Source: Escherichia coli (GTDB lineage Bacteria; Pseudomonadota; Gammaproteobacteria; Enterobacterales; Enterobacteriaceae). Taken from it: 64,000 nucleotides of DNA. Made by a program: the position numbers. This document shows positions 3,001-6,000 of this stretch, one piece after another (the stretch's first letter is position 1; each line of letters begins with the position of its first letter). Location of the stretch: NCBI RefSeq assembly GCF_009931435.1, contig NZ_CP043414.1. One strand, given 5' to 3'.

Positions 3001-6000
3001 TGGCAGCATTCGATTTTTCAATGGTTAGCAAAAAAGTGAGCTGTACGGTTAGCGCGCCAACCACGGAAAAAATCAGCAGACTAATGGCATCTTTGTGATT
3101 GTTAATAATAGAAAAGATTTTATCGCCATGCACAAATGACAGCGTCAGCAGAATCAAACCGGCGAATATCAAACGCGTCATAGTCAAAAACTGCGACGAC
3201 ATCTGGCTTTGCTCCATGATGTATTGCGCGCAGACCCCTGAACTTCCCCACAACACGGCGGCAATCAGAACGTTCAGCATCCCCTTTCTGGTGGAACCCA
3301 TTTTTCCCTCTGCATACTGTTTTGTCGTTTATGTATGCAGGCATGATAGCAAAAATGGCGAGGATGGCTCTGTTTGCGCCACGCCGATTTTTCTTAGCTC
3401 AGACTGGTGAGCTAAATATCTTTAATAAACAGCAGGCAAATCATCGCAATACCCAACATCCCTATCGCCAGCCAGAACAACGAGTGGTAGCTCCAGATTT
3501 CAACCATAATTCCGTCAACAGAGCCGGCGATAATCCAGCCGACGCGTGAGGTATTTGCATATAACGTTGTCGCAGAGCCTATTTTTTCAGGCATCAGATC
3601 CTGAAAATAAAGCATGCCGATACCACAGAGAATACCAAGGAAAATGGCATTTAGAATTTGCAATTCCAGCTCAACTGCCGGAGTCGTCGCCATGAGTACG
3701 CTGGCGTAAAAACACATACCACTCACGATAGCAATGAGCATTAATAGTCGCTTGCCAATACGTTTCATGTAATAGCCTGCGATTAACATCATCGGAATTT
3801 CCAGACCGGCAGCAATACCAATCATTTCTCCAGCCAGTTTATCGGTTAGATGCAGTTCATCAATAATAAATAGCGGCATATTTATCATGTAGAGATTATT
3901 CGCCGCCCACATCATTGAACAGACTACAAAAAGTAGCCGTGTATCCCGCTTTCTATGGATGGAGGGTAAAATTTCTACGGGTTGGGTAACGACAGGAATA
4001 TTTCTTTGTATTGATGGCAAAAACAACCAGACTATCAGCCCGCAAATAACAAATGCGATGGCAGCGGTGAGATACATCACTTTAAAACTAAATCCCATTG
4101 CCAGCTCATAAGCGAGCGGTGGCCCGATAACCCAGGCAAGCGAGATCTGAGCACGTAAAAATGTACTGAACATGACCGTCTCACGGCCTGTTCTGTCGGC
4201 GTGTTCACGGGCGAGGGCGAACATTTGCGGGTTTGCAGTGGAAGCAAAACTACTCAGAAGTACGCCCGTAGAGAGGAGAATGAAGTAGTTGCGATTCCAC
4301 GCAAAAAGAGTGCAGGCCAACACTCCAAATAAGCAACATAGCAGGATCAGTAATTTACGGTCGCCTTGTTTATCGGAGTGCCTTGCCAGAAATTGACTGA
4401 CCAGAATTCCCATAATAGCGCTACCGGTGAAGAAAAAACCTACCATTATAGGACGGGCTTTCAGTTCATCTGCGAGGAATATACTTAGGGTGGGAGTCTG
4501 GAGAGCGCCCGCAATACCAGTCAGAAAGGCGACAAGTAAAAATGCCGCGGCAGTGAGATCAAGTATTTTTGATGGAGTGGTAGCCATTTTTTGCATTCTT
4601 CTGAATCACCGGGCGACAAAATATAACTGAGTTACAAATAAGTACCAGTCGAATGAGTATTATATTAAGAATTTTTGAGTATCGCTGATACAACCAGAAA
4701 GCAATGCTAGCGCAATATTATAGGGCCAGCAATTGAGATTATTAGCAAAAGCATGTTAAGAATTAATCACCGAATTTATATATTAATTATAGTAAGGCAA
4801 TGAGCTATTTTTGATAGTAAAAATAAAACAAGTTTAATTGATATATTAAATGAAAAAATTAATCTTGATGGCAGTCTGATTATTGGTGAAGTTTATAGGT
4901 CAGTTTTTTTCGCCAGCGGTTAAAGGAATAGAATCGTCGTATAAAAAAAGGGTGTTTTGGGGCGTGTAAAACAACATCTTCACCTTAATGGCGATACAGT
5001 TGGCTGAGAGTCAGCAGGGGGGCAAATCACCTGCAAATAAACACGGCGCATGCTGGCGCGAATATCGCGGATGCGTTCGAGGACAGAAGAACCGACAGGC
5101 GGATTCTTCAGTCGCTCATCGTCCATCACAAAACCTTTGATCAGGTATTCCTGAAGTTGATTAAATATTGAGCAGTAGAAAATATCTGGATTGACTGTAT
5201 TACAAGGGGTTGGAGAACGTCAGTAGAAGCAAATTGGCGGAAGATCACAGGAGTCGAATATGGGTGTTAATGTTTTGATTTTAAATGATTAATCTGTGTT
5301 GGATAAATGAGTAACCCCCATAAGAACCCCCAAATAACTTTGTGTAAGGGAATGAAGCTAAAATACACAATCGAATCAATTCTTAGAGCTTTATTATGAA
5401 GGTAACACTCCCGGATAGTGTTTCGCAATAATATCATTCAGCCTGTCAACCAGTTCTGGTTTCCTGAACCTGATGTGCGCGGAGCCTTTCTTAAAGTATC
5501 TGATGCTGAACATCTCATCTTCATAGCATTCTTTACCCTGAACAGACCGGATGTGATCATCCAGACGAATAGTGATGTTTTCCCGGTTGTCGGGGATCGG
5601 TTTGCCGCTGAACAGATGTAGCATTCTTTCCAGGTCGACGAGTCGGTCAGTCTGTTGCCCGGTGATAAGATGAAACCCCCACCGGTCCCACCTCACCAGG
5701 TTGTTGACGATAATTTTACTGCCAAATTTGCAGGGGCAATTGGTTTTGTAATTCCAGCTCAGTCCCCTGAAGACGTTGATCACCCCTCGCTCAAACACCT
5801 CATCCTTATTCTGGTGTAGTTGTTCAAATGTGATCAGAATGTTCGCTTCACTGATTTCCGGAAAATTATCGTACTCCAGTGACCGGTACCATGTATCACG
5901 GGCCTGTGCATCCATTAAGGAAAGCATCCCTGAACGTTGCATCAGGTCACGCCAGATTTCGCGATCGAGATTGCGTGTGATGGCTTTCATTGCGGTTTCC

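Follow-up and report, generated by a model that had tools for sequence, protein, structure and literature searches.

The DNA analysed here, referred to as the window, is one continuous stretch of 64,000 nucleotides from Escherichia coli. Backbone genes occupy its left end, and setC is the nearest of them to a 24-bp sequence that repeats the 3' end of the tRNA-Sec gene selC. Island DNA extends from this sequence to the right edge of the window, and is composed of several distinct gene modules. The features, from left to right, are the following.

3412..4596, minus strand: setC, the backbone gene nearest to the island (called by NCBIfam as a sugar efflux transporter with 642 bits, and annotated in matching RefSeq genomes)
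4597..5234, minus strand: native selC-setC spacer, including the remnant of a yicT / RhuM-family pseudogene at ~4995-5156 (colinearity with K-12)
5235..5258, minus strand: very probable attR core, where 24 bp of the selC 3' end recur as a direct repeat; the minus strand reads TTCGACTCCTGTGATCTTCCGCCA
5259..64000, no strand assigned: in-window part (at least 58.7 kb) of a genomic island very probably integrated at selC, continuing past the right edge; absent from same-lineage genomes with an empty site
5394..12742, minus strand: CP4-like accessory module (RefSeq annotation of the 99.96% identical DNA of strain 98193; Pfam families in L019)
17335..17568, plus strand: AlpA-family small DNA-binding protein, a candidate excision (directionality) factor (annotated in 98193 as an AlpA family regulator)
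20470..28433, no strand assigned: nucleotide-metabolism and defence cluster (PADLOC, RefSeq annotation, Pfam families)
29010..37814, plus strand: type I restriction-modification genes hsdR, hsdM and hsdS, then an ATPase and its ~300-aa partner (PADLOC REase_I, E = 1e-273)
38498..41517, plus strand: hypothetical protein, outer-membrane beta-barrel protein (39084-39830) and sulfatase-family, phosphoethanolamine-transferase-like protein (40015-41517) (NCBIfam, RefSeq annotation)
41649..42416, plus strand: IS1 copy, entry point of the resistance region, at the same position in relatives
42417..64000, no strand assigned: Tn21-family mercury-resistance transposon with Tn3 and a class 1 integron (100% identity to an annotated region of strain AHB18)

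Further left of setC follow yicL, nlpA and yicS, likewise on the minus strand, and the extreme left of the window encodes a SycD/LcrH-type chaperone which is eicA-like, eicA being a gene of the selC-B/eip type III locus. The original prediction had placed conserved chromosomal genes on this side of the repeat and had proposed an alignment with the selC-setC region of K-12 as a check. So aligned, the reverse-complemented window follows K-12 colinearly from the 3' end of selC across the yicT pseudogene as far as setC, and setC, yicL, nlpA and yicS occupy the same order downstream of selC as in K-12. The spacer between selC and setC measures 638 bp in the window vs 636 bp in K-12, and is 100% identical to that of same-lineage genomes with an empty site. 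The RhuM pseudogene call within it is taken from the annotation of strain 98193, and Pfam Virulence_RhuM matches occur in L019-L022.

Two peculiarities of this flank were considered as traces of past events and rejected. The spacer of ~640 bp, together with its RhuM fragment, might have been a strain-specific remnant of an older island, but K-12 has the same spacer and the same yicT pseudogene. Along similar lines, the variant ATTTGCTTCTAC beside the core (K-12: AAATGCCTCTCC) might have been taken for a recombination footprint, but it is identical in the same-lineage empty-site genomes and belongs to the native flank.

The repeat itself, TGGCGGAAGATCACAGGAGTCGAA on the plus strand, is by direct alignment the exact reverse complement of the final 24 nt of the 95-nt selC. 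Two annotated copies of the tRNA gene served as references, namely those of K-12 MG1655 (L005, 1723-1817) and strain 98193 (L003, 26277-26371), and they are identical to each other. The identity with selC stops at exactly 24 nt, where the window continues with TATGGG against the CCTGCC expected in selC, and the 40 nt on the island side agree with the selC body at 9/40 positions, which is chance level. ARAGORN detects no tRNA gene in the 64-kb window, and Rfam at the gathering threshold finds in the whole window an attI/AAC_AAD leader at 60058-60136 and nothing else. These results uphold, at 24/24 positions, the claim that the 24-mer represents the reverse-complemented 3' end of selC, as well as the claim that the rest of the tRNA is missing. 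They also dispose of two findings which had been named as fatal to that prediction: an intact selC immediately left of the repeat is excluded by the window itself, and a 24-mer not matching selC by the alignment. In addition, a search tolerating up to three mismatches finds TGGCGGAAGATCACAGGAGTCGAA at this single place in the 64 kb, against a chance expectation of 0 matches (100 shuffles of the window). No further degenerate att copies were found in the island, the closest other 24-mer on both strands of the whole window being more than 7 mismatches away. Islands integrated at tRNA genes are recognised by a partial repeat of the tRNA 3' end where their distal boundary meets the native downstream flank, and this is the arrangement found here.

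Comparison with relatives places the boundary to the base. Same-lineage assemblies were found via an exact-protein look-up with the SetC variant of the window, and two of them, L017 and L021, have an unoccupied selC. Both match the window at 5258/5258 positions from its first base onwards and stop matching there; past that point they carry an intact tRNA-SeC which ends at that very base (9268-9362 in L017), followed by yicJ. The island is thus missing from closely related genomes which retain an uninterrupted tRNA gene and the same flank, that is, an empty attB.

On the other side of the boundary, the island has close relatives in other backgrounds. Strain 98193 differs from window 5235-27500 by 9 mismatches in 22,266 bases, and strains S3 and S1-KEN-07-A are 100% identical to the window over 5243-29000; S1-KEN-07-A, whose flank differs, is still 99.5% identical over 5243-35000. 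The sibling draft assembly L022, in a contig of 15.6 kb, is 100% identical over window 1-6763 and has the same junction. Backbone-type DNA thus reaches as far as 5258 and island-type DNA begins at 5235; the two overlap in the 24-mer, the sole stretch common to the empty-site backbone and to the island in other backgrounds. An overlap of this kind is the signature of a site-specific recombination core common to attB and attP. A horizontal origin of the island is indicated by its being far more alike between strains than the flank (99.96% vs 94.8% in 98193, the latter over the backbone 1056-5231), and by its mosaic composition; its GC content ranges from 33% to 66% across 2-kb windows.

The CP4-like genes begin 135 bp to the right of the repeat. 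They encode proteins of the DUF4942 and DUF957 families, a DUF5983 remnant, the CbtA toxin and YeeU antitoxin, DUF987, RadC, antirestriction, DUF932 and DUF905 proteins, a YafY-type regulator and a YfjP-type GTPase. Several of them (the CbtA/YeeU-type toxin-antitoxin pair, RadC, antirestriction, DUF932 and the YfjP-type GTPase) are also present in the elements CP4-57, CP4-44 and CP4-6 of K-12, which are integrated at a small-RNA or tRNA gene by a P4-type integrase, as the window island would be. Those elements, however, occupy other sites (ssrA, the argW region and thrW) and differ from the window island in their remaining content; they are not known to have phage structural genes. The near-identical island of 98193 (43 kb) likewise has no annotated genes for capsid, tail, terminase or lysis functions, and the one entry in it that relates to phages is an 'inovirus Gp2 family' protein. 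The original prediction of CP4-type prophage genes immediately to the right of the repeat can therefore be retained for the CP4-like module, whereas the term prophage is unjustified because the annotation of the near-identical island lists none of the structural genes of a phage.

The CP4-like module is followed by the gene for the inovirus-Gp2-family protein, that for the AlpA-family protein, a ProQ/FinO pseudogene and a gene for an H-NS-like protein. The AlpA-like protein matches the NCBIfam 'excise' domain weakly, with E = 4e-4, under the curated cutoff. The next cluster (20470-28433) comprises a dGTPase (21140-22393), an IS3 remnant, a thymidylate synthase, a 314-aa protein, an XRE/peptidase M78 protein, a MazG-like protein and a transposase remnant. 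Among these, PADLOC recognises the dGTPase (E = 1.4e-109) and, as PD-Lambda-2_B-like, the XRE/peptidase protein (E = 3e-30). In the restriction-modification locus, hsdRMS spans 29010-35287 and is followed at 35296-36918 by an AAA_15/AAA_21 ATPase which matches the PADLOC models PDC-M55A, NsnB and AriA; its partner of ~300 aa has no match in either PADLOC or Pfam. The NCBIfam matches of the proteins encoded at 38498-41517 all fall under the curated cutoffs. The outer-membrane / phosphoethanolamine-transferase-like module also adjoins a pheU integrase in APEC E14033. With CP4-like, defence, outer-membrane, IS1 and Tn21::Tn3 / integron modules side by side, the description of the locus as a large composite island proved sound.

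The last of these modules enters at IS1. In relatives, the IS1 at the same position is flanked on both sides by GGCAGAGGA, a 9-bp target duplication, which indicates a simple insertion. The IS1 of the window has GGCAGAGGA on its left side only, and its right side abuts the mer end of Tn21. The junctions of the window and of the relatives L007 and L008 are reciprocal, as they read GGCAGAGGA/IS1/mer in the former and cat (catA1)/IS1/GGCAGAGGA-hyp-int-selC in the latter. A sibling assembly, L028, is 99.986% identical to the window over 24121-45287, including the island-IS1-mer-Tn3 junction; by coordinate arithmetic, its contig stops within the resistance region. The island-IS1-mer junction occurs in none of the complete E. 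coli RefSeq genomes, and the exact 57-nt junction pattern has no match among the GTDB representative genomes.

A region of the E. coli AHB18 chromosome that is bounded by IS1 agrees at 100% identity with the window from IS1 to the right edge (42417-64000). Within this part of the window, Tn3, consisting of blaTEM-1 (43640-44500), tnpR and tnpA, sits within merP; past Tn3 come merCADE, tniA/tniB, IS1326, a class 1 integron and then tnpR and a tnpA cut by the end of the window. The integron contains sul1, qacEdelta1, aadA1, attI (60058-60136) and intI1 (60229-61242), and the Rfam attI/AAC_AAD leader scores 73.9 bits (gathering score, 56). The presence of mer, a tni remnant, intI1/attI, qacEdelta1-sul1 and tnpR/tnpA identifies the region as a Tn21-family transposon with a class 1 integron. 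A 988-aa transposase of L008 was considered as the continuation of the truncated Tn21 tnpA and rejected, being only ~77% identical over a short stretch and part of a different transposon. In the simplest model, recombination at the resident IS1 would have brought in an IS1-bounded resistance segment, so that a second IS1 and, after it, a gene for a 347-aa protein, int and selC would be expected beyond the window.

Neither attL nor an integrase gene nor selC is found within the 64-kb window. In 98193, the island runs for ~43.4 kb from an intact tRNA-Sec and the gene for a 394-aa integrase to the 24-mer beside setC, and both of its ends contain the 24-mer, which at attL is part of selC and at attR neighbours setC. 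The integrase of the relatives, 394 aa long, consists of Arm-DNA-bind_3, Phage_int_M and Phage_integrase domains, that is, the P4-type architecture. Among the genomes that encode exactly the same integrase, seven were scanned with ARAGORN, and in 7/7 of them, including 98193, the integrase gene is preceded at a distance of 299 bp by an intact tRNA-SeC. By analogy with the relatives, the selC-int end of the source genome is expected ~7-13 kb past position 64000, in line with the original prediction of an intact tRNA gene beyond the right edge.

It might be objected that the island junction is real and the far end rearranged, an inversion, deletion or transposition involving IS1 or Tn21 having parted attR from selC-int, or selC having been lost. 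The absence of the right-hand target duplication at the window IS1, which directly abuts foreign Tn21 DNA, would fit such an event, as would the presence of several repeated mobile elements (IS1, Tn3, IS1326, Tn21 tnpA) and the occurrence of the full arrangement in none of the complete E. coli genomes of the collection. Yet relatives with resistance modules at the same IS1 keep the order IS1/GGCAGAGGA-hyp-int-selC, and selC is intact beside int in every relative scanned, which makes a rearranged far end improbable. Much less credible still is the idea that the 24 nt are the displaced 3' end of a split and inactivated selC, of which the far end would retain the first 71 nt only. One copy of the 24-mer and no detectable tRNA in the window are what a split gene would leave, but all seven relatives scanned, 98193 included, have a complete selC (95 nt), 98193 has the 24-mer at both island ends, and integration that regenerates the tRNA gene is the established behaviour of P4-type integrases. 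As for a chance or low-complexity match to selC unrelated to integration, nothing was found in its favour, and it is refuted by the shuffles, by a position exactly colinear with K-12 and by two independent homology breakpoints, both of which agree with the boundary to the base.

The reading I favour, with a probability of about 0.93, is that 5235-5258 is the attR core, i.e. the distal junction of an island integrated site-specifically into the 3' end of selC. The island, in a circular form, would have carried an attP with the same 24 nt as those that end selC; on the excised circle, the attP junction would read AACACCCATA-24-mer-GTTTACCTCTTC. Recombination between attP and attB (the chromosomal selC), within the 24-bp identity, would have been catalysed by a P4-type tyrosine integrase encoded at the opposite end of the island. 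At attL this would leave selC intact, with int after it, and at attR the 24-bp partial copy, with the native selC-setC spacer after it; the chemistry of such a reaction is presumed from what is established for P4-type tyrosine recombinases. At a later time, the mosaic island would have gained the IS1-bounded Tn21::Tn3 / class 1 integron region at its resident IS1. The island may still be excisable, with the AlpA-like protein as a candidate helper. That it is active, and carries the multidrug and mercury resistance of Tn21::Tn3 between distant E. coli backgrounds via integration at selC, is a tentative and rather doubtful suggestion; if true, such an island would be a chromosomal vehicle for the spread of resistance, independent of plasmids.

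Islands at selC are well represented in the literature. According to the passages describing the selC-A element of EAEC 042 (Sheikh et al., PMC7058095), an intact selC is followed by the insert and by a 21-bp repeat of the selC 3' end, beyond which are described setC, yicL, nlpA and, after these, the type III locus selC-B/eip (PMC7058095; PMC2808357, ROD61). The same layout is seen in the window, whose left end reaches the eicA-like gene of the selC-B/eip locus. The 042 element, however, is small (~11 kb) and phage-like, and its repeat is one of 21 bp, whereas the window island measures at least 58.7 kb, has a repeat of 24 bp and carries different cargo.

GI3 of E. coli O104:H4 is also located at selC, with a reported target of 23 bp, and contains yeeV/yeeU and a resistance locus in which a Tn21-family backbone carries a mer module and a class 1 integron (PMC4326458). 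Compared by description, GI3 and the window island share the selC site, the yeeV/yeeU toxin-antitoxin pair and a Tn21-derived locus with mer and integron. The two resistance loci are nevertheless distinct, that of GI3 being an IS26-shaped Tn21/Tn1721 hybrid with Tn6029, dfrA7, tetA and strAB, and that of the window an IS1-bounded Tn21::Tn3 with aadA1. Furthermore, GI3 carries ag43, while none is annotated in the 98193 island near-identical to that of the window. Other elements associated with selC are LEE, SHI-2, PAI I536, Tia PAI and LAA (reviewed in PMC7545054), and AGI-3 of APEC BEN2908 (Chouikha 2006, as it is cited in PMC4326458). Compared in general architecture, these six share with the window island the same tRNA target and the principle of a P4-type integrase beside selC and short flanking direct repeats; their cargo is entirely different and consists of virulence loci.

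The junction type is already known, since selC islands with end repeats of 21-24 bp have been described, and the junction adds no new biology. The combination of the island with IS1-Tn21::Tn3 likewise consists of known parts joined by a known route, and at least one draft assembly has it. What the 24-mer does provide is a boundary, exact to the base, for the annotation of an island which measures at least 58.7 kb and combines anti-phage defence genes with a multidrug/mercury-resistance transposon. This is useful for annotation and for resistance epidemiology because the resistance genes lie in a potentially mobile chromosomal island. The junction from setC across the repeat to DUF4942/CbtA is present in 593/5426 complete E. 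coli genomes (~11%, at a coverage of at least 80%). Within the lineage of the window, selC is a reused integration hotspot among the assemblies compared: it is found empty in some, taken by the island in the window, and in L018 occupied, at the same site, by a P4-like satellite with a 21-bp repeat.

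The selC site is found in three states within a single chromosomal lineage of Escherichia coli, to which the window belongs, that is, empty, occupied by a satellite and occupied by the island. The satellite is carried by the same-lineage genome GCA_035607835.1 (L018), in which a different element sits at selC:

L018, about 9300-9362: P4-like satellite, with genes for Psu, Ogr/Delta, AlpA, a primase and a reverse transcriptase.

Only 21 bp of the satellite's end repeat, TTTGACTCCTGTGATCTTCCGCCA, are identical to selC, in agreement with the repeat of 21 bp reported from EAEC 042 (PMC7058095).

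As to the island, its attP homology is suggested by sequence comparison to reach past the 24-bp core. Over the ~15 nt following the perfect core, the island side of attL in strain 98193 (L003 26372-26386) and the native downstream flank of the empty selC in another same-lineage genome (L017 9363-9377) share an imperfect match of 11/15 positions (P about 7e-4 in a fixed register); on the tRNA-body side of the core, no similarity between island and native DNA was found. An altered junction is present in strain S1-KEN-07-A (L002 5557-6020), the island of which is 100% identical to the window from 5243 to 29000; here the end repeat bears a 4-bp deletion, TTCGACTCCTGTGATC----GCCA, the K-12-like flank extends only 10 nt past the repeat before a different backbone begins, setC is absent, and yicL is adjoined by a 165-aa hypothetical gene.

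A type III secretion locus lies at the left edge of the window:

255-752, minus strand: chaperone of type III secretion, SycD/LcrH / SicA-like (114 bits against NCBIfam TIGR02552, which exceeds the cutoff).

In same-lineage loci (L017 13845-21185), the genes after the chaperone encode translocators like IpaB and IpaD/SipD, a regulator and a giant protein resembling intimin/invasin. This chaperone and translocator region is the eip / selC-B locus known from EAEC 042 and ST69; it is interrupted by the window's left edge, and strain 98193 lacks it.

Two stretches of the island contain defence candidates:

20470-27588: dGTPase defence gene, thymidylate synthase, 314-aa protein (aGPT-Pplase3/ADDT domains), XRE/peptidase M78 protein (PD-Lambda-2_B-like) and MazG-like protein.
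35296-37814: AAA_15/AAA_21 ATPase and overlapping partner of ~300 aa, directly after hsdS.

The common theme of the former cluster is nucleotide-pool / DNA-modification, and it may form a single defence or counter-defence unit. The latter pair, located in a stretch of 33-36% GC, looks like an uncharacterised two-gene defence candidate inside the type I restriction-modification locus: the top PADLOC matches of the ATPase are PDC-M55A, NsnB and AriA, and its partner has no match in Pfam or PADLOC.

Just beyond this pair, at about 37957-37966, is the point at which ~3 kb of DNA with ISEcp1-blaCTX-M-15 is inserted in the island of several strains, among them 98193 (insertion at L003 34006-37052) and S1-KEN-07-A. 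The window being devoid of it, resistance genes were gained independently, at no fewer than two island positions, in different strains. The window itself carries:

43640-48407: Tn3 with blaTEM-1, inside merP of the Tn21 mer operon.

In the identical region of the AHB18 chromosome, merP is annotated as split. Elements at different tRNA sites evidently have island modules in common, as in APEC E14033 (L006 34112-39733), where the outer-membrane protein / phosphoethanolamine-transferase / hypothetical module adjoins a different integrase, at tRNA-Phe, as does a Tn21-family region.
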